Shown: positions 610 through 48,690 of the stretch, piece after piece
How positions within the stretch are numbered: the stretch's first letter is position 1
How the letters are laid out: every line of letters starts with the position of its first letter
DNA from: Mercenaria mercenaria
Taxonomy: Eukaryota
Length of the DNA: 64,000 nt
Assembly (NCBI RefSeq): GCF_021730395.1
Contig: NC_069372.1
Coordinates: forward strand, 64,220,221-64,284,220
Direction: 5' to 3'
The notes under the pieces: model-generated
Told to the model about the DNA's origin: nothing
Database searches by the model: none
What the model saw: the letters and a program-made list of their open reading frames with translations, nothing else
Translations under genes and position numbers: made by a program

Positions 610-1600
610 ACAACAAGAGCTGTCGGAGGACAGCAACGCTCGACTATTCAACAGCCTTGTCAACTGAATTAATACAAAAGTTGAAAAAGGGGCATAATTT
701 TGTAAAATGCAAAGTAGAGGTATTGAACCTCTGTATTGCATGTCATATCATGACAGTGAACAAGTGTGTGAAGTTTCGATCCTTTCCAATTTGTGGATAC
801 TGAGATACCAACTTACATACAAAAACTTAACCAAAAACTGCTAAGTCAAAAAAAGAGACATAATTTTGAAAAAAAAAAAGTAGAGTTATGGGACTTGCTT
901 AGTGCATGTCAGATCATGACAGTGAACAAGTATGTGAAGTTTCAATCCATTCCCATTATTAAGTACTGAGATACCAGCTTACATACAAAACCTTAACCAA
1001 AAATTTCTAAGTCGAAAAAGGGGCATAATTTTGTAAAAAAGTAAAATAGAGTTATGGAACCTGTGCAATGTAGGTCAGTTTATCACAGTGAATAAGTGTG
1101 TTAAGTTTCAATCCATTCCCATAAGTGGTTACTGAGATACCAGCTTATATACAAAACCTTAACTAAAAATTTCTAAGTCGAAAAAGGGGCATAATTTTGA
1201 AAAAAAAAAAGAGCAGAGTTATGGGACTTGCTTAGTGCATGTCAGATCATGACAGTGAACAAGTATGTGAAGTTTCAATCCATCCCCATTAGTAAGTACT
1301 GAGATACCAGCTTACATACAAAACCTTAACCAAAAATTTCTAAGACGAAAAAGGGGCATAATTTTGTAAAAAAGCAAATTAGAGTTATGGAACCTGTGCA
1401 GTGTAGGTCAGTTTATCACAGTGAATAAGTGTGTGAAGTTTCAATCCATTCCCACAAGTGGTTATTGAGATACCAGCTTACATACAAAACTTAACCAAAT
1501 CGGGACGCGGACGCCGATGCGGACGCCGACGCATGGGCGAGTCCAATAGCTCTACTATTCTACGAATAGTCGAGCTAAAAATGGAAAAAGACGAATCTAA
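610..1600. mobile_element. Composite non-autonomous element (copy 1): conserved left terminus (caagagctgtcggaggacagc...cgactattc) + 5 tandem ~160-bp units (ggggcataattttgtaaaa...tgagataccagcttacatacaaaa) + conserved right terminus (gacgccgacgc...gagtccaatagctc...tcgagctaaaaatg)
   Basis: Direct reading. The same terminal sequences recur at 7010/7375, 8460, 14270/15310 and, inverted, at 48690/47680. Internal units repeat with ~160-bp period from ~690 to ~1500. Confidence 0.7.
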
Positions 1601-2499
1601 TAAGCGATTTCTTGGTGTTCAAAGTGAATTTACTACTTAAACAGAAGGGCTAGAGTTACACATCTTTAAAAATATTGAGTTATACGCGGTGAATGTTCTC
1701 TATTTTGCTTTCACTCTTAAATTATATATTGTGGAAGAAATTTAGGTGGGTTTTACGTCTGCCCTAAAGTTATTTTTAAATGGAGTAAGCAAAATTCAAA
1801 ACAGAAACACAGCATTCGACCTTATTTTTTCAATGTTGAAGTATGAATTCTGTCTCATTAAATCCGTTTACTTGAGGCACTACTGAAAAAATGATACTGA
1901 CATTTTTATTTTGTGTTTTATAATTGTTTACCAATAGTTTGATGTTTCTTTTATTAAAATAAATGGTAAAATGAGTTCTCAGCAAACATTTTGGATAGTG
2001 GCTATCACATCGAAATTCGTCTCTACTTGAGCTTGAGGAGATACCATAAGTTATACAAAATTTATAAAAAACGGCACGGTAAAAGTTGTTTAAAAACTGC
2101 AAAATAGTGCAAAACACGGCTACCTTTCAGAATATACCAAGCAAAGGCCATTTTGTAAACATTACTATTAGTGATCTAATACCTTAATCAAAATCATCCA
2201 GCAAAAAACTTGGTTAAAACTCTACTATAAGATTTTCATTGGTTATGATTGTCAAAATTCATGGGCTGGCGTAGGAGGTGTTGAAACATGGGTAGTATAA
2301 TTATAAACGAATGAACAATGAGCTCACTTTGTTTAATAATCTACTTATAATAGTATTGAATACAATGTGCAGTAAATACATACAGAAATTGTTGAAAACA
2401 TACTTTCACGATGAATGTGATGTTTAATAAATATATGGACACAGTATCATCTGTCAAATATATATGAATCTTTTATGCATTTAATTCACGGAAACCATT

Positions 2500-2790
2500 A
2501 AACCTATCCAATGTGAACTAATGCAGACGCTATTTAACCTATCCAGTATGTTCTGAATATGCAGACACTATTTAACCTACCCAGTATACACTAAATATGC
2601 AGACACTATTTAACCTATCCAGTAGGTACTGAATATGCAGACACTATTTAACCTACCCAGTATACACTAAATATGCAGACACTATTTAACCTATCCAGTA
2701 TGTACTGAATATGCAGACACTATTTAACCTATCCAGTATGTACTAAATATGCAAACACTGTTTAATCTATCTAATATTTAAGAACATTAT
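2500..2790. repeat. Tandem minisatellite, ~40-bp unit (gcagacactatttaacctatccagtatgtactgaatat), ~7 units; degenerate copies continue to ~4300
   Basis: Near-identical consecutive units seen directly. No unique spacers. Confidence 0.85.
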
Positions 2791-4323
2791 CTAACCTATT
2801 AGATATGCACTCAACATATGAACACTGTTGAATCTATCCAACATACACACTATATTACCTATCCAGTATGTTCTTATTATGTGAAAACTAATTTACATAC
2901 CCAAACTGCACTGAATATATTTAGTTCAACGCTATTTAAGCTGTCAATGTACTGAATATATAATCAATCAGTCATGACTATACATGCTATATGAATGCTA
3001 TTTTACGAAACAGTATACATATCCACTGTACTGATTATGTGAGCGCTTTTAAATTTAACTTATCAAGTAAGAGTTGGATATATGAACACCATTTAACTTA
3101 TCCAATACCTAATAATTATATGAACACTTATCAAACCTATTCACAAATCCACAGTCTGTAATATGAACACCATGGTGCATTAACTTTCCAAAATATATTG
3201 AATGTACGTGCAAGCATCATTTAACTGTATAATATATACTGGATATCTGAATACTACTTACACTATCCAAAATGCACTAGAATCCCAAATGCACTAAAAA
3301 CAGGACAACTTCACATACCAATTTAGTATGAAGTATTTAAACACTATTTTACCAAACAGTATCCATTGTGCTCATGTGAAAACTGCTTTATGTAAAGTTC
3401 CGTAAGGCTTTAAATTCTATGTTAAAAATTGATGAAACAGCTTTCTAAATAATGTTTTGCATAATAATATGGTAAAAAACACTTCTTTTGCACATGACCT
3501 TGTACAGTTAGAACCTTAAAAGGTGGCAATCAAAAACAATGGATTCAATAATACTTTTCTACTAAGTTAACTCTTTCATTTTGACAAATATTTCCAAAAA
3601 TAATTGTCAAAAGTAGGATTTAAAAAGAAGTTATAATATTTTATGTTCACAGCATAAAAGATGGCGGCCACATTATACACAAAGTCATTGAGTCTTTAAT
3701 ATATCCATTACATGATGAAAATATGGACACCATTTTACACTGCACAAATACAATGAACACTAAATTTATTAATCCAATGTTTTGAATTTACAAACAACAT
3801 TTAATCTATTCAAAACATCATTTTACCTATCCAATATATACTTCTCATAAGAACACCTTTTCATCAAGTTTGCAAATTTTGATTCAAAAGAACACCATTT
3901 AATCTAGTCAAAATGAATTGAATATAAGAGTATGATTTAAACTGTCCAATATGTTTTGAATATACAAACATCATTTAACCTTAGAAATACATACTGAATA
4001 ATTATGAAAACTGTTAAACTGAATATATGGACATGTTTTAATTGAATTCACTCAATTTCTACTGAATATATGAAAAACATTTAACCAATCCAATATTTGT
4101 TGTTAAAAGTTGGAAACTTATTTAATCTTTCCAATATGTATTGATCATAACAGCATTTTTCAAACCTATTAAGTATCATTAGTATGTCATGAATATACAG
4201 GTTTCATTTAGCCTATCCAATAAGTACTAAATATAATGAATGTGAACATAACATAACATATCTTGTACTTTTTGAATATATAAACACTTTTCAACCCATA
4301 AAATATGTAAAGAATATAATTAT

Positions 4324-4697: not shown

Positions 4698-7009
4698 TTT
4701 TGACCTGAGTGTGACCTTGACCTTGGAGCTAGGGGTATGAGTACTGCATAATTATGACAAGCCAGCTCACTATGGGGAACATTTGTGCCAAGTAATATTA
4801 AAATCCTTTTATAAATCACCTAGCTATGGGCTGGATATGAAATTGCAGACAGACACAAAGAGCAATCAAGGAGTGTCAAATATAGTAATGAATTTATGAA
4901 TACAATGTGTAGTGAACATAATTCAACTATTAAGTTTGGATAAAAGAAACAATTAGTGATGAATAATATGAACACAGTTTAAAGTAACACATAATGAATA
5001 CAATATAAAGTACACAATTTATCTGAAATCTAATAATCACAACCAATGTATAATGGATATATGAACAGAGTATACAAAAACCGATAGTGAATACAATGTG
5101 AAAACAAACTAACTAAAGTTTAATAATGAATACAATGGGTAATGAATATATAAACACATTCTGAAGAAATGGATACAAATTTTGAAAATCAATACAATCT
5201 AAACGAAATCTAATGATAACTATGAGCAATGAATATATCAACAAAGTCTGATTTATGACCTGATAATTACAATGTGAAATTAACACAATCTAAATGAAAC
5301 CTAATAATGATTACAATGAATAATGGAGACACAGTACAGGCTAACTGTTTAACATATATCATGTACACTAACATTTACACAGGATGTTCAGAAAGACAAG
5401 GTATCATCCACAGTTCAATGACCTACATCAATCTTCAGTCTTGAGGTATCCTCAGCTTGACCAAAAATATCATACAATTGAATACAGCAGACAATGTTCC
5501 TCAACTCTCAGCACATCCTGAAATATGGAAGGTTTGCATTGTAATAGTCTTAGAGAGCAATCAACGGCACAATAACAGCCCTACCTGGTATTTAAATAGT
5601 CACCTATATAGCACCTGTTAAAAGGAACAAGTTACTATCTACTTGCTGTTAAGTCATTTCATTTAAGTATCAATTTTCTGAGAAACTTTTAAGTTTGTTT
5701 AAGTGTAAGATATTACACATTACAATAAATTAAATTTTATTTTAAATAGTTGACCTGAACTTTCGAATTTATTTTATATGAGATTTTGAAACATTTTCTG
5801 ATGTCATATAGTATGTGTGTATTTGACAGCTACTTCACAGTCAGAATAGTTCTTTTTCAGTGACACTACATATTTATCAATGATCTAGAATTGTAATCAA
5901 GGAGAACTATATGAAATTTAAACAATAAATGTGGAAATTCGACAAGAAGCATTCAAACATTGCATCACACCATCAGTTAGTCAAGCCTACCTTAAGTTAA
6001 AACTGGAAACCACCATGATCAGTGATTTTGTTTCTGTTTTTAGTAATTGTTACCTTGACTTTGACCCTATGGAATCAAAATGACTACTTTTTTATTTCAT
6101 CAAAAAAGTAAAACCAGGATCAGGATTTGAACCATGGTCTGCCTGTTCAACATTACAAACTAAGGTACAATAGACAAACACTTTAGCCCACTGCACAGTT
6201 GTGGAATTTTCTAAGTATGCACATTAAGTTATGCTGACATTGAACTTGACCCCATAGCATCCCAACCTTGCTTTTTCTATAAGAGAACCTTTAGGCAAAG
6301 TTTAATTTCAATACATCAATCTAAGTTAAAGTTACTGAGCAAAAAACACTTTTCTATGTCTATTAATTAATAATAATGACCTTGCCTTTGATTCTTAAGA
6401 GTCATATGCAACCCTGATTTCTGTCTATATGCAAGCTACCTATATACCAAATTTTACTGCAATCTGTCACTCCTAACTCATATTATTGTGGGGAAACTAA
6501 ATTTTGATGCTGCATGCCCACATGGCTGCTTCTGCACGACATCACCCAATCTAATAACCCCCTGTGATTCCAGGGTAGGTCTTTTGGTTGGAATCTTAGG
6601 GAGAGGTAACCCCCATCATAAACCTAGAGAGCTGAAGATGTACCAGGCAAGTTGGCGCTCTCTAACAAACCATGGTACAATGCATTTACTACACCATGAC
6701 TACACAATCATCTAGATTTAGTTGTGATGGCGCTGGTTCTTTGAGATCCTTCCAGGCAGAATCAATGCTGGGCTCTGAGCCTCGACAGTCCACCTCAAAC
6801 TACTGGAGGTAACTCCCATCACCATAGAGCTAGGATACGAGGGAGGAAATCTACTGGCCACACCGGAACAGAAAAGAAGCCAATGCAACCTTTCAAGGTT
6901 ATCTAATAACCAGCTTTTTCAGCTTTGGTACAATGAACCATTTGAACAAAATTGAAAGAAGTCCATCCAAGTTTGGTGAAGATCCATCAACTGGTTCATG
7001 AGAAAACAA

Positions 7010-7375
7010 GAGCTGCCAGTTGACAGCGTGCTCGACTATTCTCAGTGCTTGATAGTATAATATAAGCTATGAGTAAAACTTTAACATTACAATTATGAAT
7101 AAGCATATTCTTAGTCGAAAAGGGGCCATAATTCAGTCAAAATGCTTGATAGAGTTGTCTGCTCCTGTTCACAGAATGGGGTCATGATGGTAAACAAGTA
7201 GGCAAAATATAAAAGCAATATCTCAATGGACTTTGAAAATATTTGGGGTGGTATGCAAACTTTAACATTTGTGTGAAGCTCACTCTAACACTAACGCTCA
7301 CGCTAACCTCGACGCCGGGGCGAGTAGGATAGCTCCCCTGTTCTTCAAATAGTCAAGCTAAAAATGATTTTGATG
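7010..7375. mobile_element. Composite element family, copy 2 (short: left terminus + one internal unit + right terminus ...cgacgccggggcgagtaggatagctcc...caagctaaaaatg)
   Basis: Termini match copy 1 (610/1590) and copy 3 (14270/15310). Confidence 0.65.
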
Positions 7376-8459
7376 TTTTCCTTAAATAAATGTTATTTAT
7401 GTAAAAACACAGCTGTGGTCCCAAATTTAGTTAAAAAGGTTGGCTTGAAATAACTTGGTAATAGAACAGAAGCCAATGCTATATGTTAAAGTTTTGTACT
7501 TCCTGAGGAAAAGTGTTTATTGTGTTTTCATAATTTATATACGACAAATTTTGTCTGAGCAACCGAGATTATACAAATTTGGTAGGAAACTGTTAACAAA
7601 AGCTTCAAAGCAATGCTCTTTTGTAAAGATGTTTTGAAGTTTCCAATGTATAATGTTTATGTTTTACTAAGAAACAATGACCCATTAGTTACCCCAATTT
7701 GACCCAGTTTAAACAATTTTCAGAGCTTTTCAAGCAAGAATTTTTCAGAAAATCTTGCTGTGAAGCGCCATCATGTGGATCATACGAAGTTATTTAAATG
7801 TTAGCTATATCTATCAGCCCCTAGATTTAGCCAAGCAGATCAGGTTCATGCAAGGACATTTGAATATCCATAAAGTTGTTCATAGGAATAAGCTGTTTAT
7901 TATAGCAAAATGTTAACAACAGACGAAACTAACATGATACTATCCATTACCTATATACATTGTACTGGTTCTAGTAAATTGTCTACAGATGTTTTTCAAT
8001 CTCAGCTACAACAGTTTCAGCTTCTGGGAACTTTAGCTTCCTTGGTGGGCCCTTCTTTAATCCAGTCCAAACTACAATATCTGAAATTGTTTTGGTCATT
8101 CTAAGAAAATATTGAAGCATAAATTTCATAACTCCTCTAACACAGTTTACAAAGGCAAAATATTTTCACTTCAATTTTGATGATGTGAATATCACCTTGG
8201 TCAGGTACACTGACTTTTCACTGATATTATCATACAGTATTTTATTAATTATATGTGTGTACCTAGTACACTAATGTGCCCCCAACCTTCCTGTCACTGT
8301 ATGGTCATAAGTTACTTGTCAACAATGCAAGAAAAAGTAAACTTCTGTATTACCTTGGGCTTGGGGTCTGAGTCATAAGGGGAATGCGGTGTGGAGTATG
8401 AATACTACAAAATATTATCAAGAAACACAAGATCAAAGCAACCGAGTGTAAAAAACAAG

Positions 8460-8600
8460 AGCTGTCACAGGAAACAGTGTGCTCAACTATTTAAATGCTG
8501 GATAGTGAAATAGGGCACACCTGAAGGATATATAGCTATCACTGGAGAGTGCAATGCCTGCTATCACTGGAGAGTGCAATGCCTCTAATGTGGATGACTG
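8460..8600. mobile_element. Partial copy of the composite-element left terminus (agagctgtcacaggaaacagtgtgctcaactattt...gatagtgaaatagggcac) followed by a 2x 30-bp tandem (ctatcactggagagtgcaatgcct)
   Basis: Sequence identity to 14270..14330. No matching right terminus was found nearby. Confidence 0.5.
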
Positions 8601-9689
8601 ACCGGACAATACTTTAAAGTATCAACTCAAATGTATTTGTAACAAGAGGGTCACTGACTCTAAAGTGCTCACCTGTGTACAAGGCTTCAAGTGTGTTTGT
8701 ATAAGTACAGAGTTAGGTTTCTTCTATGTTAGCCTATATTATATACATTACATGTCACACACAAGTTTTTGAACCTAGGACAATAATTTGAACAATTACA
8801 GTAAACATTACAAATCTGATATCACAGGCCAAATAAGCAAGGCTCTAGCTATTACTAATTCAGAGAAGAAGATTTTCAAAGTTTCTTATATAAAAGCCTA
8901 TAGTAAGTACATGTCAGACATAGGGTCATGGCCATTTGTTTTACCTTAGGGCAATAATTTTGACAAGTATGATAAGAGTCAAAACCTTATATCACAGGCC
9001 AAATATCAAAGCTCTAGAGAAAAGGATTTTAAAAGTCTGATAGCTGAAAACCTATTTTTAACCAAAAAGACCTATATGTTCAATGAACAGGAACCATTTG
9101 AACAACTCTGAAAGTGAGCTACCCAGAGATCATTTGTGAAGTTTCATCAAAATCCATTCAGTAGTTTTGGAGGATATGTTGTTTAAAGAAATTGTTGATG
9201 AAATGGGACCATGCCCTCTGGTGGCCATTGTTTTTGACTTATCAGAAAATATTTGTAGAAGGTCACACAAGGAGGAAGTTTTACTATATACACAAGAGCC
9301 ATGTTAGACATGGCTAATGCCCCCGCCGGGCATATTATAATTGAAGGCTAAAGTTCCTGGCAAGTTAGTGTCTGAAAGTATTAACTTTGGGGAAAGCTTT
9401 GAAGAACCGTTTAGTTGTGGTCCGCATCAGGGGTTTTAAAGATGTGGAAGAAAGAATAAGTCAATGGTGAAGTGGTTTACTGCTAAATTTTATTAATTTT
9501 CATGAACAGTATAGCTATGATGTTTTTCTATATGGCTACTGTAAAAAGAAGGAATGGAAAGCTTACAGGGAACAAGAGTGCCAGAATGTCACAATATACG
9601 TCCGTCACAGCAAATTTCTTTACTCTAGCAGCAATTTTGTGGTTGTTTAGTTATCATTGTAAGTCTTTTGTTTTTCTAAGTCCACAAAA

Positions 9690-11874
9690 TAGCTCCTTAC
9701 CAGGTAGAGATACCTTAAAATACACCTAAAATTGGAAAGTAACATCTATGTTGTACCACAGAAAAGTGGTCTTGTTTTTTCCCTACGGTCAATTATAAAA
9801 ATGTTACAATATAAGTTATTTATAGTAACAACTAAGGAAAGTTAATTTAAAAAAAAAAAAAAAATTGTAAATGCACACAAAAATCTTTACCAGGTAGAGA
9901 TTGGTCAAAATACACCTCAAAATTGGATGTAGCATGCATGTTGTACTACAAAAAAGTGGTCTCGATTTTTCCCTACGACTAGTAATGAAAAAGTTACAAT
10001 AAAAGCTATTTAAAGTAACAAAAAGGGAAGTAATTCTAAAGAAGGGAACTGCGCATGACACTTCGTCTCATGATGGTGTATAATTGTGCCAAGTTACATC
10101 AAAATCCCTCCATGCATGAAAAAGAAATGCTTCGGGCAAAGTCATTCTTGTATCTGACCTTTGGCCTCTGTGACCTTGACCTTAGACCTAGGGACCTGGA
10201 TCTTGCGCAAGACACTCCGTCTCGTGGTGGTGAACATTTGTGCCAAGTTATATCAAAATCCCTCTATGCATGATGAAGAAATGCTCCGGACAAGGTTTTC
10301 ATTCTTGTATCCTTTGACCTCTAAGTGTGACCTTGACCTTAGACCTAGGGACCCAGTTCTTGCGCATGACACTCCGCCTCGTAGTGGTGAACATTTATGC
10401 CAAGATATATCAAAATCCCTCTATGCATGAAGAAGATATGCTCCGGACAAAATTTTTTAAGAAAATATGATAAAGGGGAATAACTCAAAAAATAAGCAAA
10501 AAATAAGCAAGGTAGAGTTATTGTTCTTGCACACTGCACTTCCTCCCAATGTGTTCTATCAGTGTATGAAGTTTGAAGAAAATCCCTCCAGTACTTTTAG
10601 AGTCATGCTCCGGACAAAATTTTTTAAGAAAATAGGATAAAGGGGAATAACTCAAAAAATAGGCAAGGTAGAGTTATGTGTTCTATCAGTGTATGAAGTT
10701 TGAAGGAAATCCCTCCAGTACTTTTGGAGTTATGCTCCGGACAAAGATCGTTGCGCACGCACACACGCACGGACGGAGAGCATTTCTAAGATCCCCTTCG
10801 CCTTTGGCGGGGGGATAATAAAGGGAAAAGTGACCACTCCCCCTGGCAGCCATGTTTTTTGACGAATCAGAATAATTTGAACAATCTTGGTAGAAGGGCA
10901 CACAAGAACCATCTGTGTAAAATTATTTTAAAATCGGGCTAGCAGTTTCACACAAGAAGATTTTTGAAGTTTCCACTATATACATGTAGTGAAAAGTGAC
11001 TGCGCCCTCTGGCTGCCAAGTTTTTTGACAAATCAAAAATATTTGCACAATCTTGGTAGTGGGGCAAACAAGGACCATTTGCTTAAAATTATTTTAAAAT
11101 CGGACAAGCAGTTTCACACAAGACTTTTTTTTTAAATTTCCACTATATACATATAGAGAAAAGTGACTACGCCACCTGGCGGCCATGTTTTTTGACGAAT
11201 CAGAAAAATTTGAATAATCTTGGTAGAGGGTCACACAAGGACCATGTGCATAAAATTATCTTAAAAGCGGGCTAACAGTTTCACACAAGAAGATTTTTTA
11301 AATTTCCACCATATACATATAGGGAAAAGTGACCACACACTCTGGCGGCCATGTTTTTTGACGAATCAAAATAATTTGAACGATCTTGGCAGAGGGTCAC
11401 ACAAGGACCGTTTGCGTAAAATCATTTTAAAATTGGCCTAGCAGTTTCACACAAGAAGATTTTTTGATATTTCCACTATATACATATAGGGAAAAGTGAC
11501 CACGCCCCCTGGTGGCCATGTTTTTTGATGAATCAGTATAATTTGAAAACCTTGGTAGAGGGTGACCATTTGTGTGACATTATTTCAAAATCAGGCCATG
11601 GCTTTGGCTACCTATCTAACTTGGCCGAGGACTTACTGGCAAACACATTTTGTTCAAGTTAGGTGAAGATCGGATGAGAAATGTTCGACTTAAAGAGTGC
11701 GGACAAGTGTGTATGGAGCGATTTTCAGTAACTCGAGGGCCATAATTTCGAAATGCCTGTGCCGATTTTGCTCGTTATCGAACTTGGCCTTGGACTTATT
11801 GTCAAACACATTTTGTCCACGTTTGGTGAAGATCCGATGAGAAGTGTTTGACATAGAGCGTGGGCAAGATTTGT

Positions 11875-11910
<36 letters not shown>

Positions 11911-29890: not shown

Positions 29891-29899
29891 TTTTTTAGA

Positions 29900-36171: not shown

Positions 36172-36204
<33 letters not shown>

Positions 36205-37777: not shown

Positions 37778-38033
37778 ATGAAAGTTCAGTTAGAGGTATT
37801 ACTTTCTCAGCTCGGGAACCCAGGGCGTTACCAGGTCTTCATATTTCTGCTCCTGTGCCTGAACTACTTTCCATTAGTGTTTAACCATGTCATCATGGCC
37901 TTTTTCGGATCCAGACCAAAACATCAGTGTTACTCAAGTGCTTATTTGCCTGGTACCGTGCAGGATAGTGTAACAGACTTCAGCATGATACAGATGAATT
38001 ACACTTCACTCGGAAACAATGCTACAGTTACTG
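37778..38033 (+). CDS. SLC22-family organic cation/anion transporter, exon 1 (MKVQLEVLLSQLGNPGRYQVFIFLLLCLNYFPLVFNHVIMAFFGSRPKHQCYSS...TVTG)
   Basis: N-terminal GxxGRYQ motif and TM1 typical of SLC22. Donor ctg|gtaagt. The track ORF 37766 starts at TTG; ATG is at 37778. Confidence 0.8.
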
Positions 38034-38454
38034 GTAAGTGGTTAAAGGTCACTAACTTAAATCCTAGTGTGACATTTCAGAGACAGTTAATCACTTATCC
38101 TACAGCAGTTTATCACTTGCACTAGTTTATGACTACCTACACCAGCAGTTCTGCTGATTGATGAAAACTGAGAAAGAAAACATGGGACTGAATTCTTACT
38201 GAACTTAGTAAGTCAGCGCTGATCTGCATAAAATTCTAATATGCATATCTTACTTTTTCAGCTCTTCAAACCCCTAAATATAAAGTAAATGAATTAAGTG
38301 TAAACTTGTTTTATTTTCTGCTTAAAATTATTATTGCAGTAAAAATGTCATTAAAGTGCCTATCCTTCATAATTAGGACTTTTCATTCATACTTCCCCTA
38401 ACAACAGGCCTCAGAAAAATTATGGTAAGAACTGATTGCTTGATTTTTTTCAGG

Positions 38455-38585
38455 TCAGTTTGAGAGCTGCAGTGCAAGGTACTATGATGCAGGGAACCAG
38501 AGTATGTCCATAGTTTGTCCAGACAGTGAAGAAAGCTTCTTGATATATCAGAAAAGTGAAAGAGAGTCCACAATAGTAACTGAGG
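38455..38585 (+). CDS. SLC22 transporter exon 2 (large extracellular loop: GQFESCSARYYDAGNQSMSIVCPDSEESFLIYQKSERESTIVTE)
   Basis: Acceptor tttttttcag|gt, donor gag|gtaaac. The phase is consistent with exon 1 and exon 3. Confidence 0.75.
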
Positions 38586-38659
38586 TAAACATTTTGTTTG
38601 TTTGATACCAGTTACCACAAGTTTCCCATATGATTAATATCCCTTGAAACACTCAGATT

Positions 38660-38890
38660 TTGTTGTTTTTGTTGTTGTTAGGTTTAATGTCACACCAACA
38701 CAATTATAGCTCTTAATTAATGGTGAAGGAAGACCACAGGTGCTCTTACAGGCATTCTTTGTATCATGGACAGCACCTAGGCACCTGGGTAGAAGTACCT
38801 ACCCTCTGTAAACCTGTTGGATGGCCACCTCATATGAAAGAATTCTACACCACAAGTTTGGTTGCGAACCCAGACCTGTAAAAAGCAAGA
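38660..38890 (-). mobile_element. tRNA-derived SINE copy in intron 2 of the transporter gene (minus orientation; (AAC)n-like tail at 38660..38680, GGTTCGCAACC box near 38870)
   Basis: Shares the body with the copies at 43071..43230 and 56850..57100 (...gaagacc.caggtgc...ataattgtgt..gtgtgac.ttaaacc). Confidence 0.55.
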
Positions 38891-39678
38891 GATTCAATTT
38901 TAGCAATCTTAAATAAAATACTTAGCCAAAGGGGCACTGAAACCCCAAGATGAATGTCTGGTTTTGTAGGTGCATGATATTTAAGGTTCTTCACAACACA
39001 TGATGGCTCAGTTTAAGTCCAAATGGCTGATAGTAATTAAGTTTGATGAGTTAGGATAAAACTCACAACCACAGGTTTTATAGTCCCATGTGATAGAACT
39101 AGGCCTCTTGTCTACTCTGCTTAGGTTCATATCCTGACATTTGTATAAGTATTTTATATTTCTGTATGTTTTTTCCACAAGTTGTAAGACAAGACACACT
39201 TTAACATAATTTACCCCTTATTTCATTTACAAAATTATTAATGAATGTTAAAATATTACCGTGATTTTAAGAACATATTTCCCATAAGTCAGCATTATTT
39301 GAAATGTGGTATAGCACAAGGCGAAAAAACATTGTGTCTGCTAATTTAACACTGAAAGGAATATTTTATCCAGATATCAATTTTGAAGAAAGTTTTGACT
39401 CTTCAAAAACATCTTGATTGAATTTTTATAAGCAGTTTAACCAATGTTTTCTACACATATTAAGGTATTTGATGCTCCAGTAAAATCAAGTGCTAAAGAC
39501 CATGTGTGAACAGAAACCAACTGACTGTAAAGAACACTAACCTAAACATCACTCTTTAACACTTCCAAGCTTGGTATTTGTATATAAAGACAACAGAGAA
39601 AACAGTATGAAAATGAAATAATCTGAAATATAATACAGTTATTAGTAGTGTCACTAGAATTGTATATTTTCTTTACAG

Positions 39679-39909
39679 TGGGACTTGGTTTGTAGTCAGG
39701 CATACCTTTCATCTCTTGCAACAACCATATACTTCTGTGGTGTGATGGTGGGTGGGGTAGTGTTTGGACATCTAGCTGACAAGTTTGGTAGGAAGCCAGT
39801 TATGTTGATATCTCTGTTCATGCCGATCGTTGTGGGAATTGCTACATCATTTGCACCATGGTATTCAGTTTTTGTGACCTTGAGATTTATTCAAGGGGTT
39901 CTTATGCAG
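39679..39909 (+). CDS. SLC22 transporter exon 3 (WDLVCSQAYLSSLATTIYFCGVMVGGVVFGHLADKFGRKPVMLISLFMPIVVGIATSFAPWYSVFVTLRFIQGVLMQ)
   Basis: WDLVC signature followed by the GxxADxxGRK/R motif. Splice sites ctttacag| and cag|gtaagt. Confidence 0.9.
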
Positions 39910-40200
39910 GTAAGTTGCATTTTAAAGCTATAATAATAATAAAGATTATGTTTTAATATTTTTGAGCCCATTTCAGATCTTTGATTTGCTCAGTTTACAA
40001 GTTCATGTACTTGTTTGATAGTATATATACATATTTCATAAGTTTATGATTGTATTTTCACGACATTTCATTATTTATTTACAATTGTATATAACTTTAT
40101 AATATTTCATTCATGTTTTTACCTTTTCATGTATATTCGATGAAACTTGTATGTGTAATGAACATTTTCATACAACATTGGCATATATCTATGTACACAG

Positions 40201-40397
40201 GGTTTACAGACCTCTACATACACACTGGCAATGGAATTGTTCTTGCCGCAGCATCGCAGTTATGCTGGTGCAATTCTTGAGTGTTTCTGGGGACTTACTG
40301 TGATGACAGTTCCCTTATTGGCATACTTGATTCCAAACTGGCGCCATCTACAGCTAGTCGTCTCACTTCCAAGTTTACTGGCTGTGTTTTATATCTG
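40201..40397 (+). CDS. SLC22 transporter exon 4 (GLQTSTYTLAMELFLPQHRSYAGAILECFWGLTVMTVPLLAYLIPNWRHLQLVVSLPSLLAVFYI)
   Basis: Contiguous with the exon 3 homology. Acceptor gtacacag|gg. The donor ctg|gtttgt is weaker than the others. Confidence 0.8.
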
Positions 40398-41078
40398 GTT
40401 TGTATATATTTCTAAAGAAATAAATGTGGCTTTCTGGTTTTTATAGGGATGTTTCTTTTCCTATATCTTCACGTTTCTCCTTCTTCTCCAGTATTATAGG
40501 GATGAATTTAAAATATTGCAAGAAAGAAAAAGAAATGACTGAACAGTTGAAGTTCTTACAATTAAACCTGTCTTAAGCAGCCAGTTTAGGGAGGGAGCAA
40601 AGGCGGCCTTTTACAACAGGTTGTGGCTTAATACAGCTGAATTGTTCTGAAAGTATAGAAATGGGAAATTGCAAATGAGGCTCCTTAAGATCAGTGGCTG
40701 CTTAAAAAGACCATTTACACAGGTTTTAGGGTATGTTGCAAGTGCAGGCTGTCTGGAGCAAGAGCAACTTGTGGTATATGTAAACAAAATTGTAACAGAT
40801 GAGTGTAGATGTTTACTGTATGCAATCTGAGCCACTCATTTAGTTGGTTGTTTGTTGAATACCCAGCAGTGGTCAAAATCATATTTACTAACAAACAGAT
40901 GGACTCGGCACAAAGTCCACACAAAAAATTAGTCCCCCGAGAATATGAATGATTTCACAGTATTTCAATTGAAAGAGCTTGGAGTTTATGAGAACTTTGA
41001 CTAATAAAGAAAACATTCTGCTGTGCTGAGTGCATATAGATGGTCATGAAAATTTGAAACTTTCCTTTTTTTTAACAG

Positions 41079-41309
41079 TTTTATGCCAGAGTCCTTGCGG
41101 TGGTTGATTCTGAAGAACAGAGTAGAGAAGGCTGAGGCCCAGATCAGTAAAATAACAGCCTGGAACAAGCAAGCGTTCCCTCATCATGCCTGGGAGGATG
41201 TTAAATTACAACTGGGAACCATGGCACAGGACACAAAGCAGTATTCAATGCTTGACCTGCTGAAAACACCAAATTTGAGAAAGAGAAGCCTGGTGCTGTT
41301 CTATCTATG
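41079..41309 (+). CDS. SLC22 transporter exon 5 (C)FMPESLRWLILKNRVEKAEAQISKITAWNKQAFPHHAWEDVKLQLGTMAQDTKQYSMLDLLKTPNLRKRSLVLFYL
   Basis: PESxRWL signature (PESPRWL in vertebrate SLC22). Splice sites tttaacag| and atg|gtaagt. Confidence 0.85.
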
Positions 41310-41498
41310 GTAAGTTAACTTTGAAATATGTTAGTGAAAAAGTATATTTGTAAGATTCATATGTTAGGGTTTTAGTTCACGTTGACTGTTTTGTAATCTC
41401 AATTCTTTTTCATCAAAGGTTCAACATAGGCCTAACATGCACTTTTCATTTTACATTTTATACTTTATTCTATTCCTTTTGTTCATTTGCCTACACAG

Positions 41499-41633
41499 GT
41501 TTGCTATTTCTATTGGTTACTATGGTTTGACATGGCGACTGACCAGTCTCCCTGGAAACAAGTATTTGAACTTCTTCATTGCTGGATGTGTGGAGTTTGT
41601 GGCTTATACTTTAGTCATCTATATAACCAAAAG
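41499..41633 (+). CDS. SLC22 transporter exon 6 (W)FAISIGYYGLTWRLTSLPGNKYLNFFIAGCVEFVAYTLVIYITK
   Basis: YYGL...GNxYLNF motif. Splice sites ctacacag| and aaag|gtaaaa. Confidence 0.85.
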
Positions 41634-41689
41634 GTAAAATACCCATGCAGTCAGTTATGTAGTTAAACTAAGATGAATTTATTTAATTT

Positions 41690-41900
41690 TAAACCGGAAT
41701 CGCCTTTCCTGTCATCCGTCCCGAAAGGCCGTCGCCTCGGGAACCCCGGTCGGATGGCTCCTGGAGGGGAACTGGTTACCCACTGCTCGGACTGTCTCGG
41801 GCTGGGAAGACCCGCAATCGCGCCGTGCAACCGCCACCCGTGTGGGTCGATGATGCCACGGCCTAGGTCGGCGGGTCCCGTTTTGATCAGGAAACATGTG
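41690..41900. other. 210-bp GC-rich island (~65% GC) inside the AT-rich intron 6 of the transporter gene, with multiple short hairpins (cgggaaccccg, cgggctgggaagacccg, acccgtgtgggt). Nature unknown.
   Basis: Sharp compositional discontinuity seen directly. ORFs 41673..41918(+) and 41712..41897(-) both cross it, but no protein homology was recognised. Confidence 0.4.
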
Positions 41901-42219
41901 CTGTTAAATTTGGGCTGAAAAGTAATCCTTGCATTTACACAAAGTCATAAGTACTTAATAGCATTCACACATGATTTCTTATTTTGAATTTAAGATTTTG
42001 TCATTGTGGCCACTGTTCTAAACAATTGAAAAATGCTATACATTTTTCTTGCGTTTGAATATTTCAGTATTTTCAGATTGTATATTAATTAACAGATTTT
42101 AAACAACACCCAAGTTTCATGAATTGAATTCTTGTAGCATAAAAGAGACGATCAGTTATGCCAGTTAAACATTAGAGAAATGAAAAAATGTTTAAAAGTT
42201 TTTATATGAAATATTTCAG

Positions 42220-42420
42220 GTTTGGGCGTAAGAAGCCCCTGCTGACCTATTTTATGCTTGCCTCCCTGTTCATGATCGGGGCAGGTGTTGTGCCCCTTGC
42301 ACTGAAGAACGTCAGCGTGTATGTAACAAGCGGGCTGGCTATTGCCGGAAAATTTGCCATGGGTGGTCTCTTCAGTGTGATCTTCCTGTACACATCAGAG
42401 CTCTACCCTACCATTGTAAG
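42220..42420 (+). CDS. SLC22 transporter exon 7 (R)FGRKKPLLTYFMLASLFMIGAGVVPLALKNVSVYVTSGLAIAGKFAMGGLFSVIFLYTSELYPTIV
   Basis: ELYPT signature. Splice sites atatttcag| and aag|gtgagt. Confidence 0.9.
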
Positions 42421-42659
42421 GTGAGTCTTGCTAATATCTCTACCCTCCAGTTTAACATTTTTACCTTGACCAAGAAACCTGTAGAAATATATATTTTTGT
42501 AAATGGAAAATTATGTTTTATCACAGTGCAGTATTGGGAAATTCCTAACATGACAGCACTCATCAATATGTTGTATTTTTCTGCTATTTTAAAGTTAACT
42601 AGGTGAATGCATGTTTGTTGATACAGAAATGTATGAGATGATATTTTTCCTGTTTTCAG

Positions 42660-42732
42660 AAATATTGGCATGGGAAGTTGTGCTTTCTGGACAAGAGTTG
42701 GAGGAGTTATAGCACCTCAGATTATTGTTCTG
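42660..42732 (+). CDS. SLC22 transporter exon 8 (R)NIGMGSCAFWTRVGGVIAPQIIVL
   Basis: RNxGxG...GGIIxP motif. Splice sites ctgttttcag| and ctg|gtaaga. Confidence 0.85.
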
Positions 42733-43070
42733 GTAAGATACATGCTTGGGTGAAGGTTTAAGCACCTTCTTCTTGGTCCATTAATATACTCTAACACAAT
42801 CTACTAATTGACCTAGATGTAAGACTGCAAATTCTTATCCATGTACAGATAATGTCTTAAGATACTACATTTCTTTGTTAAATAATAATTAGCTGGCTTT
42901 TATGGCTTTGGTTGTATTACCTGCAAATAGGGGACATTTTCAATCTTTCAGATTTAAATTATGTCTTTTCACTTCTATTGGCATTCTTTATCAGTGATTA
43001 TATAATCAATTTACTTTGCATTAGACATCCATTTGGTATAAAACTTTTTAGGAGAGAAATTGTTCTGTTG

Positions 43071-43230
43071 GGTTTAGCGTCACACTGACACAATTATACG
43101 TCATCTGGTGACTTTCCATGGTGGAGGAAGACCCCAGGTGCCCCTCCATGCATTATTGCATCACAAGCGGGCACCTTGGTGCCCTGAGTGAGGCTCGAAC
43201 CCACATTGGTGAGGGGCAAGTGATTTGGAG
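43071..43230 (-). mobile_element. SINE copy, same family, in intron 8 of the transporter gene (GGGTTCGAGCCTCAC B-box-like on the minus strand)
   Basis: Alignment by eye to 56850..57100 (+). Confidence 0.55.
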
Positions 43231-43589
43231 GAGAGAGAAAAACTTAGGGATACTAAAGAGCTTGAATGCATTTTGTCAGAATCACATATATATTTAAATA
43301 AATGATGCTTTCATCTCTTCTCTATTTACATAATTTTGTGATTTTTAGCTCACCATCATCAGATGGTGGGCTATTCAAATCACTCTGCGTCCGTGGTCCG
43401 ACGTCCTTCCGTCCGTCCCTCATTCCGTCTGTCCGTCCTTCCGTTAACAATTTCTCGTTATCGCATCTCCTCAGAAACTACTAGGGGGATTTTTACCAAA
43501 CTTTGTCAGAATGATGTATTGGTACCCTAGTTGTGTCCCTCTGAAAATCACACTGGTGCAACAATTTTTTAGTAAGTTATGGCCCTTTG

Positions 43590-44120
43590 TTTATTTCTAT
43601 AATTTACATAGATTTATATAGGGAAAAACTTTGAAAATCTTCTTGCCCAAAACCACAGAGCCTAGGGCTTTGATATTTGGTATGAAGCATCATCTAGTGG
43701 TCCTCTACCAAGATGATTCAAATTATTTCCCTGGGGTCTAATATGGCCCCGCCCCGGGGGTCACATGGTTTATATAGACTTATATAGGGAAAAACTTTGA
43801 AAAACCTCTTGTCCAAAACCACAGGGCCTAAGGCTTTGATATTTTGTATGTGACATCATCTAGTGGTATTCTACTAAGATTATTCAAATTATCCCCCTAG
43901 GGTCAAATATGGCCCTGCCCCGGGGGTCACATGGTTTACATAGACTTATATAGGGAAAACTTTGAAAATCTTCTTGTCCAAACCACAAAGCCTAGGGCTT
44001 TGATATTTGTAATGTAGCATCATCTAGTGGTTTTCTACCAAGTTTGTTAAAATTATCCCCCTAGGGTCAAATATGGCCCCGCCCTGGTGGTCACATGGTT
44101 CATATAGACTTATATAGGGA
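43590..44120. repeat. Intronic tandem array, ~175-bp unit (catagacttatatagggaaaaactttgaaaatcttcttg...ccaaaaccacagagcctagggctttgatatttg...ggccccgccccgggggtcacatggtt), ~3 units
   Basis: Direct periodicity. Preceded by a tccgtccgtcc-rich leader at 43370..43450. Confidence 0.85.
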
Positions 44121-44149
44121 AAAGTTTTTAAAAACTTCTTGTCAATAAC

Positions 44150-45410
44150 CTACAACATTCAGATTTGGACCACATGTATGGTTTTGAGTGGCAAGATGAA
44201 CCTTGACATGAGTTGACCTTGATTTTGACCTAGTGACCTACTTTCACATTTCTGTAGCTACAGCCTTCAAATTTGGACCACATGCATAGTTTTGTGCACT
44301 GAAATAAACTTTGACCTTGACATTGACCTAGTGACCTACTTTCACATTTTTGAAGGTACAGGCTTCAAATTTTGACCACATGCATAATTTCTTGTTCCAA
44401 AATGAAATTTGACCTTGATTTTGACCCAGTGACCTACTTTCACATTTCTCAAGCTGCAGCCTTCAAATTTGGACCACATGCATGGTTTATGTACCGAAAC
44501 AAACTTTCACCTTTGAAAACTGAAACTGAAACTGGTTTATTTGCTTAAACGCCTATTTCTACATTTAAAACATATTCAATGGCGTTTTACAATACAAGTT
44601 GAAATAAAATATTAAATATAAAATATTTTAAATAAGATTAATTAAAACGAATCAAAATAGCAATTATTAATTTAAAGTCAATGATAATACTATATTTTAA
44701 AATATTACTAACATACAATTACACCTTTACATTGACCTGGTGACCTACTTTATCATTTTTGAAGGTACAGGCTTCGAATTTGGACCATATGCATAGTTTT
44801 GTATTCCGAAATAAAATTTGACCTTCATTTTGACCTAGTGACCTACTTTCACATTTCTCAAGCTATAGCCTTCAAATTTGGACCACTTGCATAGTTTTGT
44901 GTACCGAAATGAACTTTGACCTTAAGATTGACCTAATGACCTACTTTCACATATCTGTAGCTACAGGCTTCAAATTTAGACCACATGAATAGGATTGTGT
45001 ACCGAAACAAACTTTGACATTGACCTAGTGACCTACTTTCACATTTTTGAAGGTACAGGCTTCAAATTTGGACCACATGCGTAGATTGGTGTTCTGAAGT
45101 GAAATTTGACCTTGATTTTGACCTAATGACCTACTTTCACATTTCTCAAGCTACAGCCTTCCGATTTGGACCACTTGCATAGTTTTGTGTACCGAAATAA
45201 ACTTTGATCTTAAGATTGACCTAGTGACCTACTTTCCAATTTCTCAAACTACAGTCTTCAAACTTGATGCACATGCATAGTTTTGTGTACAAACCACTTT
45301 GTCCTTGAAATTGATCTAGTGACCTACTTTCACATTTGTCAAGCTACAGCTTTCGAATTTAGACCACATGCACAGTGTTGTGTACGGAAATGAAATTTGA
45401 CCTTGAGCTA
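44150..45410. repeat. Intronic tandem array, ~115-bp unit (gaccacatgcatagttttgtgtaccgaaataaactttgaccttgacattgacctagtgacctactttcacatttctcaagctacagccttcaaatttg), ~10 units, with one ~150-bp AT-rich interruption at 44560..44720
   Basis: Direct periodicity. Confidence 0.9.
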
Positions 45411-45498
45411 ATCAGTAAGTCTTGAAATTTGGAACACACAAAAATGGCACATTGGTGGGCGCCAAGATCACTCTGTGATCTCTTGTTTGTTTTTGCAG

Positions 45499-45720
45499 GA
45501 TCACTTCAGCAACAAGTCTATGCCTCTCATCCTGTTTGGACTGGTTACTCTAATTGGTGGATTCCTCACAATCTTGCTCCCAGAGACGCTTGGTCGCAAG
45601 CTTCCAGACAACATTGATGATGTAGAGCAGTCTGGTTCCCATGACAACATAGTGAATGGAGAGGAGATGAAATCTCTGAATTCCAATCCAGATCATGATG
45701 CCAAACAAGAAAATGTGTAA
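45499..45720 (+). CDS. SLC22 transporter last exon (DHFSNKSMPLILFGLVTLIGGFLTILLPETLGRKLPDNIDDVEQSGSHDNIVNGEEMKSLNSNPDHDAKQENV*)
   Basis: LPET.G..LP..I.D.E C-terminal signature. Acceptor tttttgcag|ga, stop TAA at 45718..45720. The total CDS is 558 aa. Confidence 0.85.
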   Translation, partial: DHFSNKSMPLILFGLVTLIGGFLTILLPETLGRKLPDNIDDVEQSGSHDNIVNGEEMKSLNSNPDHDAKQENV

Positions 45721-47679
45721 ACTTAAAAAAATGACATTGAATAATTAAATTCAGTCTTAGACAGATTTCATTTAAAGTATCCATTGATTATTTCTATAAG
45801 CAGTATGTTTTATGTGAAAAGATATTTAGCATAGGTCTGGTACAAATTTTATGCCTACTCACAGGAAATTATGTACTTGTATAATCCAGGAGATAAGTGT
45901 TATGCTGCTTGTAGAAATACTCAGTGAAGATGAAGTTTGTTTCTCATATCAAAAGCTGTACAGATGATGTATAGTGCATGTTAACATCCTAGCTGAATGT
46001 TACATAGTTTGCATACCACTAGCAAAAATTTGAAATCCAGGAACTCATGAAATAGCCATTATGACCAAAGTCTCACAATTTTATGTCCAAGACCTGTCTT
46101 GCAAATCAGAATTTGCTGTAAAAAGAGAAACTAAAACATGATGTTCTTAAATGTGTAGATTTTGAATTGTCTTTTACATTTATGTTACATTCAGTTTCTT
46201 ACATAACACTTAAACTAGTACAAAGTGATATATACAAAAATGTACTAGGCATCATCTGAACAGCAAAGTATCGTATGCGCTGTTTTGGGGACATTGTTTC
46301 AGCATGACATATTTAATGCATGAAATATTTCATGATGGAACATTGTCTTTTAAAAAACAAAAGAAACACAAAATTAAAAGAAATTCTTAAAAACAAAAAA
46401 TCTTCAAAATGAAGATAAGAACAGTTAGGTGTTGGTAGAAGTTACATTTTGTTGCCATGTTGCAGATGGCATTACTGACTGGGTTTTGCAGTATTCAACA
46501 TGACTTCACAATGTATCATTAGGCTATATAGTGTGGCATAGAGGCAGCAAGAGTTATTCCTTTATTTGCATATAATCATGATTTAAGCCACAAACTAAGG
46601 AACTTTGTTAAAAATTTAAGATACAATCAATGTTAAATTACTCTAGGTAGTATAGATGGAGGTACAGTAAATTCTCCTTTTCAATTAAAGAACTACTCAT
46701 TTGCTGATTTTTAGTAGAAATAGAATTTTAAATTTGATGTTTTTATATAAGAATTATTTAAAGCATTTTTTCTGGCTTATCGTGTCAGTTTTTGAATGTA
46801 AAAAAGGAAAGAATATAAATTATTTTTAATTCCAATTGTAAGCAAAACTTGTTGAGAAAAAATGAATTTTAAAGCAAATTACTACAAAAACGATAGGTCT
46901 ATAACTTCATATGGGAGTTGCTGAACACTAGGACTAGGGCAGCTGTAGGAGAAATTCTGCGGCCATGTAAAAGTTAAGAAAAATATGTCAAGTTTGTCAT
47001 TTACAAGAACTGCTTCTTTTAAACTGAATAGTACTGTGAAAATCTTTTTTCAGTATATTTTATCTTTAAAGACAATTTAAATTTGTTTTTAACATCATCA
47101 TATTAGTGCTGGTATAGGTATGTGTTAGACATACATAGAAATTTAGAACTTTTTTTAAGTTCAGAACTTGTTTACTTTCTTATTCTGTTTGAAAAATTAT
47201 TACAAAATAAAAGTCATAGTTTTAGTTGGAAAGAAGCTTAATTCTTTCATGTCTAACTTTTGTTAATGACAAACTTGATGTAAACAGTGCCAACATCTGA
47301 TTGTATAAAGAAACCAAAACAGTGTAGATACATAATGTAAATAGTTCCTCCTGTTAATTTTATTTTCTTCTGTAGTATTTGTAGTACTTTCTTAATGATA
47401 TTGTATGTTTTAAAGTGTATACTATTTCTTTAATTGACCTCTGTGAGCTGTACAGTGTTTGAATCTCTTTTTATAGGGAATATGTTTGTATAAGATTGTA
47501 AATACTACTTTTTGTACTAAAAGATCAAAACCAACACAATATTAACAATAATTCTGATTATACTATAGTTGATTTCTTTTATGAATAATATTTTGGAATT
47601 TTAAACAAAATAAAAATTTAAAATTGATTTTCCTTTATGACTGGTATTAAATGTTAGTTTTATTAGCTCATCTGATTTT

Positions 47680-48690
47680 TTGAAAAAAAATGATGAGTTA
47701 TTGTCATCACTTGAGCGGTTGTCGGCGTCGGCGTCTGCGTCGGCGTTGCCTGGTTAAGTTTTATGTTTAGGTCAGCTTTTCTCCTAAACTATCAAAGCTA
47801 TTGCTTTGAAACTTGGAATACTTGTTCACCATCATAAGCTGACCCTGTATAGCAAGAAACATAACTCCATCTTGCTTTTTGCAAGATTTATGGCCCCTTT
47901 TGTACTTAGAAAATATCAGATTTCTTGGTTAAGTTTTATGTTTAGGTCAACTTTTCTCCTAAACTATCAAAGCTATTGCTTTGAAACTTGGAATACTTGT
48001 TCACCATCATAAGCTGACCCTGTACATCAAGAAACATAACTCCATCTTGCTTTTTGCAAGATTTATTGCCCCTTTTGGACTTAGAAAATCAGTTTTCTTG
48101 GTTAAGTTTTATGTTTAGGTCAGCTTTAATCCTAAACTATCAAAGCTATTGCTTTAAAACTTGCAACACTTGTTCACCATCATAAGTTGACCCTGTACAG
48201 CAAGAAACATAACTCCGTCCTGCTTTTTGCAAGATTTATGGCCCCTTTTGGACTTAGAAAATATCAGATTTCTTGGTTAAGTTTTATGTTTAGGTCAACT
48301 TTTTCTCTTAAACTATCAAAGCTATTGCTTTGAAACTTGCAACACTTGTTCCCCATCATAAGCTGACCCTGTACAGCAAGCAACATAACTCCATCCTGCT
48401 TTTTGCAATAATTATTGCCCCTTTTGGACTTAGAAAATCATTTTCTTGGTTGAGTATTATGTTTAAGTCAACTTTTCTCATAAACTATCAAAGCTATTGC
48501 TTTAAAACTTGCAACAGTTTTTCACCATCATAAGTGGACACTGTACATCAAGAAACATAACTCTATCCTGCTTTTTGCAAGAATGATGGCCCTTTTTAGA
48601 CTTAGAAAATCATGGGTAGGACAATATTTCTATTACACTAAAAAAAATCAGATGAGCGTCAGCACCCGCAAGGCGGTGCTCTTGTTGATT
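47680..48690. mobile_element. Composite element family, copy 4 (inverted orientation): the right terminus is the reverse complement at 47690..47750 (gagcggttgtcggcgtcggcgtctgcgtcggcgttgcc), then 5 tandem ~160-bp units (cttggttaagttttatgtttaggtcagcttttctcctaaactatcaaagctattgctttgaaacttg...), then the reverse complement of the left terminus at 48640..48690. Short inverted ends agctcatctgatttttt / aaaaaatcagatgagc.
   Basis: Terminus comparison with 610..1600. The internal satellite is unrelated to copies 1 and 3. ORFs 47806..48012 and 48330..48533 are repeat translations. Confidence 0.65.

Follow-up and report, generated by a model that had tools for sequence, protein, structure and literature searches.

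HINE/DINE-1-type elements carry subterminal inverted repeats (subTIRs), the 5' one accompanied by a further inverted repeat (IR), as well as a microsatellite, repeats at the center and a stem-loop on the 3' side; they go into T-rich targets and leave no target-site duplication (TSD), and these traits define the type (PMC4067079). In the oyster Crassostrea gigas, flanks and repeats diverge together in 'group 1' of the Cg_HINE elements (Vojvoda Zeljko et al. 2020, PMC7492417). Here we describe elements of this design in another bivalve, Mercenaria mercenaria, within a single window of 64,000 nt (assembly GCF_021730395.1, contig NC_069372.1, positions 64,220,221-64,284,220, forward strand), a stretch that is AT-rich (~36% GC) and dense with short tandem arrays of units of ~100-190 bp. 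Five copies, E1 to E5, had been picked out by a sequence-only reading; to these we add a fragment, F6, and we refer to the group with the A-type monomer as family A. The copies very probably belong to one HINE family, that is, they are non-autonomous, non-coding partners of Helentrons, of the Helitron superfamily, a class in which the bivalve elements pearl, DTC84, MgE and Cg_HINE are placed: a subTIR pair, an IR by the 5' subTIR, a 3' palindrome and a microsatellite together with repeats in fixed orientation were all found, which bears out the earlier proposal of non-autonomous, fixed-terminus elements with satellite-like arrays, of the bivalve pearl or Helentron-derived kind.

This is a known kind of element, and no new mechanism is shown. 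Such elements are a principal means of spreading satellite-like repeats across bivalve genomes, and their correct annotation matters for repeat masking and for studies of satellite DNA. The window contributes a clean family with well-marked limits in a further bivalve, compensatory evolution of the paired end motifs, and a terminal signature that extends across several families and to a second species.

Anatomy and boundaries of the elements

Elements are read 5' to 3' by the HINE convention, which is the reverse complement of the direction used in the sequence-only reading (minus strand for E1 to E4 and F6). In this orientation they comprise 5'-TTTTTA, an 11-nt subTIR GCTCGACTATT, a loop (5 nt in E1), the pairing IR, a (GGCGTC)n microsatellite, one to five tandem monomers of ~165-175 bp, a spacer, the 3' subTIR AATAGTCGAGC, a 6-bp palindrome and CTCTTGT(T)-3', with the subTIRs placed asymmetrically, the 5' one 6 nt and the 3' one ~26 nt inside its end. 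The type is best seen in E1 (612-1581, minus strand), a complete family-A element of 970 bp with sharp boundaries and a subTIR pair without mismatch over 11 positions. Its 3' terminus (612-619) reads AACAAGAG on the plus strand, or CTCTTGTT-3' of the element, a heptamer common to 14 copies, and adjoins the palindrome GCTGTC(GGAG)GACAGC (619-634; -5.7 kcal/mol, z = -2.25), a perfect 6-bp stem that in element orientation becomes GCTGTC(CTCC)GACAGC followed by TCTTGTT; hairpins were folded as single-stranded DNA, and z values are relative to shuffles. The 3' subTIR (GCTCGACTATT on the plus strand, 638-648) is the exact complement of 1565-1575. The central array (678-1499) holds 5.0 x 166 bp of A-type monomer in an alternating dimeric pattern, with 82% matches at a period of 166 and 89% at a period of 333, and is followed by a microsatellite-like (GACGCN)5 at 1502-1532. 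At the 5' end (1547-1575), the IR TAGCTCTACTATT (1547-1559) pairs with the 5' subTIR AATAGTCGAGC (1565-1575) in a hairpin of -9.7 kcal/mol (z = -4.68) that was equalled in none of 200 shuffles, and the 5' terminus at 1576-1581 reads TAAAAA on the plus strand, the element itself starting with TTTTTA.

The other copies depart from this pattern to different degrees. E2 (7005-7364, minus strand) is complete and decayed, with a single monomer (~7106-7270), a degenerate microsatellite (~7279-7316), a 3' subTIR at 7030-7040 and a 5' subTIR at 7348-7358 that differ at one position, and two degraded hairpins. E3 (8454-8559, minus strand) is truncated to its 3' part, consisting of the terminus, a weak palindrome, the subTIR GCTCAACTATT (8481-8491) and the spacer, and shares 76% identity over 106 nt with 14258-14363 of E4. 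The latter (14258-15319, minus strand) is complete, with a variant terminus AAAAAGAG, a palindrome at 14265-14282, a 3' subTIR at 14285-14295, an array of five units of 128-173 bp (14471-15238, in which TRF sees only 2.9 x 153), a microsatellite at 15240-15271, a 5' subTIR at 15303-15313 and TAAAAA at 15314-15319; its subTIR pair has 3 mismatches in 11 and its 5' hairpin is degraded. E5 (47658-48686, plus strand) is a complete, inverted member of a divergent subfamily, which begins with TTTTATTAGCTC and continues through a subTIR/IR hairpin at 47666-47698 (-7.6 kcal/mol, z = -2.6), a microsatellite at 47716-47750, an array of 4.9 x 175 bp at 47751-48610, a 3' subTIR at 48647-48657 and a palindrome at 48661-48680 to a terminus that extends to 48686. 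The microsatellite is of the (GACGCC)n kind in E1, E4 and E5, and the 3' palindromes of these three copies form 6-bp stems 7 nt from the end; that of E3, like that of E2, is degraded. The positions first given for the five copies were essentially right, but E5 lacks the termini that had been quoted for it; the array sizes stood roughly for E1, E2 and E4, whereas the E5 unit is 175 bp and not ~160 bp. The earlier list did not contain F6 (11955-12155, minus strand), which retains one E4-like monomer and the 5' terminus GAGCTAAAAA (12146-12155), the 5' terminus of another element cut by the window start (1-14, minus strand, with GAGCTAAAAA at 5-14) or at least five further element families of the same design.

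In the window the shared motifs greatly exceed their frequency in shuffled sequence: AACAAGAGCTGYC was found at 9 sites with up to 2 mismatches (2.4 expected), AATAGTCGAGCTAAAAA at 4 with up to 3 mismatches (0.32 expected), GACGCCGACGC at 7 with up to 1 mismatch (0.05 expected) and GAGCTAAAAA at 5 (0.21 expected). Hairpins of at least 6 bp follow ACAAGAG at 4/17 sites, against 4.3% of random windows (p = 0.005). Rfam and ARAGORN gave no matches inside the elements. When the ends are aligned, the resemblance breaks off sharply, at AACAAGAG on the one flank and GAGCTAAAAA on the opposite one, and the DNA outside is unrelated; between E5 and the ends of the other copies only AACAAGAGC, GCTC and GAGCTAA are held in common.

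Copies from elsewhere were obtained by scanning marine metagenome contigs with the 3'-end pattern, which returned ten loci, L002, L006, L009 and L010 among them. In all ten, unrelated sequence precedes (A)ACAAGAG and the 3' end is the same, and four are complete to AGTC[GA]AGCTAAAAA. Because these ten copies share an end beside unrelated flanks, the boundaries are fixed and the termini lie outside the satellite monomers; the possibility, raised at the outset, that the termini were part of the monomers themselves is thereby answered. L009 is a copy of 103 bp with both ends and no monomers, and L006 is nested in a monomer of another element, with an E5 type of end, within an oligo-A tract, where the sister monomer reads ...CTTAAAAAAGGGG at the point of insertion. 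Counted over the window and external copies, an A stands directly before ACAAGAG in 12 of 14, and GAGCT is followed by exactly five A's in 11/11. For the eight complete copies (four from the window and four external, 103-2049 bp), the flanking bases were compared and showed no duplication.

In these eight copies the two subTIRs differ at 0, 1, 3, 0, 0, 1, 0 and 0 of 11 positions. The subTIR pair of E5, GCTCATCTGAT/ATCAGATGAGC, has no mismatch, its IR is altered to match and its palindrome is different, and the subTIRs of L006 carry the double change GCTTGACTATT / AATAGTCAAGC; since the motifs of E5 and L006 change in step, pairing is kept while sequence changes, and the paired end motifs have undergone compensatory change between subfamilies. 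The host of the nested L006 insertion (reverse complement, ~2800-4170) has the E5-type end CAGATGAGCTAATAAAA, and a neighbouring element ends in AGCTCATCTGTCTG-AAA-CAGACGAGCTAAAAA; these are additional subTIR/IR variants that keep their pairing.

A 20-kb piece of the Mactra antiquata genome (L011) contains an element of the same design. Its 3' side has ACAAGAG, the palindrome GGGCCAT/ATGGCCC and then GCTCACCTGAG, its interior has eight unrelated units of ~148 bp followed by a microsatellite, and its 5' side has an IR and then CTCAGGTGAGC-TAAAAA. An ENA contig (L012) that carries a reverse transcriptase relative at 71% contained no such elements.

One diverged repeat and the explanations weighed

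The sequence-only reading assigned the arrays of these copies to three satellite types, the third of them unrelated. Judged by their alignment, E1, E2, E4 and E5 hold homologous arrays. In permissive blastn searches of the window with each element as query, the E1, E4 and E5 arrays and the E2 unit were linked at 60-68% identity, with E-values reaching 1e-53 to 1e-73, and all monomers align over their full length in one frame, with the shared blocks TTCTAAGTCnAAAAGGGGCATAAT, AGAGTTATG, ATGATGGTGAACAAGT, AAGTTTnAA and AAAACTTAACC. Consensus monomers of E1, E2, E4, E5 and F6 are 63-77% identical, the F6 monomer reaching 77% with the E4 consensus, and their scores exceed those of shuffles with z = 9-25 in 8/10 pairs and with z = 5.9 and 3.4 in the two pairs with the partial F6; a rotation-aware test of the E1, E4 and E5 arrays gave z = 15-23. 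The arrays have the same orientation in all copies, and in E1, E2, E4 and E5 the monomer meets the microsatellite at the same monomer position, immediately after ...AACTTAACCAAA, i.e. ...AAC(T)TTAAC(C)AAA. Such an identical junction across the four elements would not arise from independent captures. Across ten elements, the similarity of flanks and that of monomers are correlated (Mantel r = 0.39, p = 0.015). The simplest reading of the alignments is that the arrays represent co-diverged subfamilies and not swapped cargo, and the claim that the window displays the exchange of cargo directly does not survive the homology of the arrays and their common microsatellite junction.

That the elements are not mobile at all, their 'termini' being the margins of satellite arrays that segmental duplication or the break-up of arrays has spread, might be suspected from a window so dense in tandem arrays and from the decayed or truncated state of E2, E3 and F6, but it is scarcely credible: at least 14 independent copies share the same end nucleotide beside unrelated DNA, the termini lie outside the monomer, L009 has both ends without a monomer and L006 is a nested insertion. 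A segmental duplication giving F6 and E4 a common right flank was considered and rejected, the blastn similarity ending at the element. It is highly improbable that these are classical MITEs (miniature inverted-repeat transposable elements), as in the first description of pearl, that is, deletion derivatives moved by the cut-and-paste action of a DDE transposase with an AA target-site duplication. The elements are short and non-coding and have inverted repeats, and an A usually lies ahead of the element with A's at its end, an arrangement that for pearl and DTC84 was taken to be an 'AA' duplication (PMC3879986). However, the inverted repeats are asymmetric (6 versus ~26 nt), neither of the extreme ends TTTTTAGCTC / CTCTTGTT is an inverted copy of the other, there is a 3' palindrome with a 5' hairpin, and the eight complete copies show no duplication beyond the ambiguous A's; taken together, these traits are the published Helentron/HINE signature (PMC4067079).

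The repeated capture or exchange of unrelated satellite arrays by one flank cassette, visible among the five copies, is very unlikely. In its favor, modularity does exist at a wider level. Other elements of the window with ACAAGAG and a palindrome at one end and GAGCTAAAAA at the other hold unrelated arrays, such as the 98-bp and BIV160-type 166-bp repeats of family F; the 3' ends of L002 and L010 are ~90% like that of L006, their monomers sharing only a junction box of ~75 nt; E5 combines very different flanks with similar monomers; and there is a published precedent in Cg_HINE 'group 2' (PMC7492417). Against this, the arrays of the five copies are homologous over the whole monomer, and their common orientation and their junction with the microsatellite at one monomer position would not result from independent capture.

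We therefore favor copies of one HINE family, in which the ancestral element would already have borne this monomer and flanks and monomers would have diverged together into the subfamilies E1, E2, E3/E4/F6 and E5. A Helentron Rep/helicase (and endonuclease) encoded at another place in the genome would mobilize the elements in trans; it may recognize the conserved terminal nucleotides and hairpins and copy the element by a rolling-circle type of process into oligo-T sites. Unit number would be altered within elements by unequal exchange or slippage, and the dimeric pattern of E1 suggests the duplication of unit pairs as one route of change in copy number.

Several observations weigh against the HINE assignment or against parts of it. 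Beyond the terminal bases the flanks of E5 are essentially unalignable, yet its monomers are 76% identical to those of E1, as close as those of E4, and recombination between modules may have occurred in the E5 subfamily. An autonomous partner encoding Rep and helicase, which the sequence-only reading had proposed to look for, was sought within the window, and none was found: there is no autonomous Helentron and no open reading frame (ORF) of more than 500 aa, and Pfam detected no Helitron, PIF1 or endonuclease domain in the 1-52 kb part, where ORFs of 70 aa or longer yielded only RVT_1 and MFS/Sugar_tr, the last 12 kb being checked by ORF list only. Because no partner is present in the window, rolling-circle transposition by a Rep/helicase is deduced from the structure of the elements. 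The hairpins of E2, E3 and E4 are degraded; the window has no near-identical copies, and recent activity is thus not supported; no empty paralogue was found in the window for the chimeric 60+60-nt flanks of E1, E2, E4 and E5; and the target preference is read from flanking bases and from one nested insertion compared with its sister monomer.

Related families, modularity and surroundings

The 3' terminus CTCTTGT(T) is common to at least six families of the window (A, the E5 type, B, C, D and F) and to the Mactra antiquata element, and TTTTTAGCTC or a close variant stands at the 5' end of those read (A, the E5 type, F and the Mactra element). Across families the subTIR, IR and palindrome sequences differ and co-vary. 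A box of ~75 nt across the monomer junction, …AACTTAACCAAA-TTCTAAGTC-AAAAGGGGCATAA…AGAGTTA, is kept even in mosaic monomers whose other half has been replaced. One Helentron lineage might mobilize many unrelated HINE families, with the ~75-nt box as a functional site, an idea that we consider speculative and unlikely. If it were true, the transposase would read a short terminal code and the shape of the DNA, not its sequence, and the box, e.g. as a nicking or termination site, would set the phase of array turnover and of the microsatellite junction.

Truly unrelated arrays occur in the window only in HINE families other than A. Elements with ACAAGAG, a palindrome and other arrays start at 9292, 13512 and 45486 (minus strand), with weaker cases at 8642 and at 9572 / 36531 (minus strand). 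In family F, a two-array element on the minus strand (43342-45487) that is built to the same plan, ACAAGAG with the palindrome AGATCAC(AGA)GTGATCT is followed by 98-bp arrays split by an AT-rich insert (44213-44513 and 44723-45404), a 166-bp array (43603-44150) that contains the BIV160 primers with 2 mismatches, three times each, and matches C. gigas Cg170/CL1 with z = 12, a (GGAC/GGAA)n microsatellite (43402-43444), a strong 5' hairpin of -10.7 kcal/mol (z = -7.6) and GAGCTAAAAA at 43342-43351; neither of its arrays is related to the A-type monomer. A further 166-bp array of 4.5 units at 10818-11563 is related to the BIV160-type array (z = 13).

Family B has two copies (9572-10820, plus strand, and 35020-36538, minus strand) with the common end ACAAGAGTGCCAGAATGTCAC, a 190-bp repeat and a ~157-bp repeat containing TCCGGACAAA, which is reminiscent of a landmark of the DTC84 element of Donax trunculus. 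At the other end the two differ: a CA/CGG microsatellite and ~1.7 A-type-related units (10452-10745, z up to 9.9) are added in the plus-strand copy, and the minus-strand copy ends in a (GGGC)n microsatellite with the hairpin ATACGCCCG...TGGGTCGTAT; family B may be a chimeric or multi-array element. Module shuffling and partial replacement of monomers have probably taken place across the superfamily at large, a proposal made before for oysters and clams, but on the alignments given above the five named copies are not an example of it.

Elements of this kind pile up at 8.4-12.2 kb. Candidate 3' ends on the plus strand are seen at 9292, where ACAAGAG is followed by a perfect 8-bp palindrome; at 8642, where a weak palindrome precedes GCTCACCTGTG, which is close to the Mactra subTIR; and at 13512, where a 5-bp palindrome leads into a decayed ~150-bp array (13560-14250) that reads through as a spurious 216-aa ORF and is abutted by E4. 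Another type of end, with a (CA)n or CGG microsatellite and then the hairpin TCTCCCACACCACT...GTGGGAGA, occurs at 11850-11960, directly abutting F6, and at 57440-57545, and related 'ttggtgaagatcc' segments also flank E2. No element was linked to the tandem arrays at 15598-16450, 2521-2771 and 20565-20883, which are a 31-bp minisatellite (~20 units), a 38/76-bp repeat and a 160-bp duplication that has 96% identity and no relation to the other arrays.

The only protein signals in the window come from reverse transcriptase fragments, exons of a major facilitator superfamily (MFS) transporter and a GH16-like exon. RVT_1 fragments of retrotransposons lacking long terminal repeats (non-LTR) lie at 23907-24815, 30055-31551, 28627-29082 (minus strand) and 51.8-52.4 kb. 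A reverse transcriptase ORF of 498 aa has thousands of relatives in marine assemblies, the best named ones, which point to heterodont clams, being in Mactra antiquata (68%) and in metagenome-assembled genomes of clam symbionts (~69%); the reverse transcriptase genes in such genomes of Thiodiazotropha and Sedimenticola are probably host clam DNA that was mis-binned. A tRNA-like Rfam match at 29249-29308 (plus strand, 34.3 bits), which ARAGORN did not call, is probably the head of a tRNA-derived short interspersed element. Pieces of host genes at 37766-43300 and 59891-60439 (minus strand) comprise exons of an MFS/SLC22-like transporter set among the repeats and an exon resembling GH16/beta-glucan-binding proteins (one match, 82%), and from these interspersed exons of host genes we infer that the repeat-dense region is intronic or intergenic euchromatin.

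Comparison with known systems

Searches of full-text literature with sequence strings derived from the elements matched only unrelated primers. A MITE with terminal inverted repeats and a TSD is not matched by these elements, whose repeats are subterminal and asymmetric and in whose eight complete copies no TSD was seen. Canonical Helitrons, probably of the same superfamily, share the 3' hairpin and have no TSD, and none was seen in our eight complete copies; but they have 5'-TC and 3'-CTRR ends and insert between A and T, unlike the elements described here, which have TTTTTAGCTC...CTCTTGT(T) and subterminal inverted repeats. DINE-1 and HINE-Mo (Thomas et al. 2014, PMC4067079) have the same defining structure; they are arthropod elements without sequence similarity to ours, and DINE-1 has a conserved core block that is not seen here.

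The likeness to the bivalve elements pearl (CvA/CvE/CvG; Gaffney et al. 2003), DTC84 (PMC3879986) and MgE of Mytilus is one of described layout. These, too, have an L flank, up to ~5-6 core repeats of ~160 bp, a microsatellite and an R flank in this order, with A's at either end and an 11-nt inverted motif that is subterminal in the L flank and lies near the terminus of the R flank; the last repeat joins the microsatellite at a fixed point, and the repeat variants are ordered or dimeric. Motifs resembling the DTC84 landmark TTGTCCGGACAA occur in family B (10050-10451 and 35096-35984), not in family A.

The Cg_HINE elements differ in their host, in a microsatellite that is mostly tetranucleotide where ours is hexamer-like (GACGCC), and in their repeat: the A-type monomer is not Cg170/BIV160, a relationship that was ruled out with the BIV160 primers and the C. 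gigas CL1 array (E1 monomer versus CL1, z = 1.0). Their modules nevertheless follow the same order, the 5' subTIR, IR and microsatellite preceding 1-5 satellite-like units of ~165 bp in fixed orientation, with the 3' subTIR and palindrome behind these, a likeness of layout. They have no TSD, and none was seen in our eight complete copies; as here, they have T-rich ends and flank motifs and monomers that co-vary by subfamily, and C. gigas, like this window, also harbors relatives with multiple or unrelated arrays.

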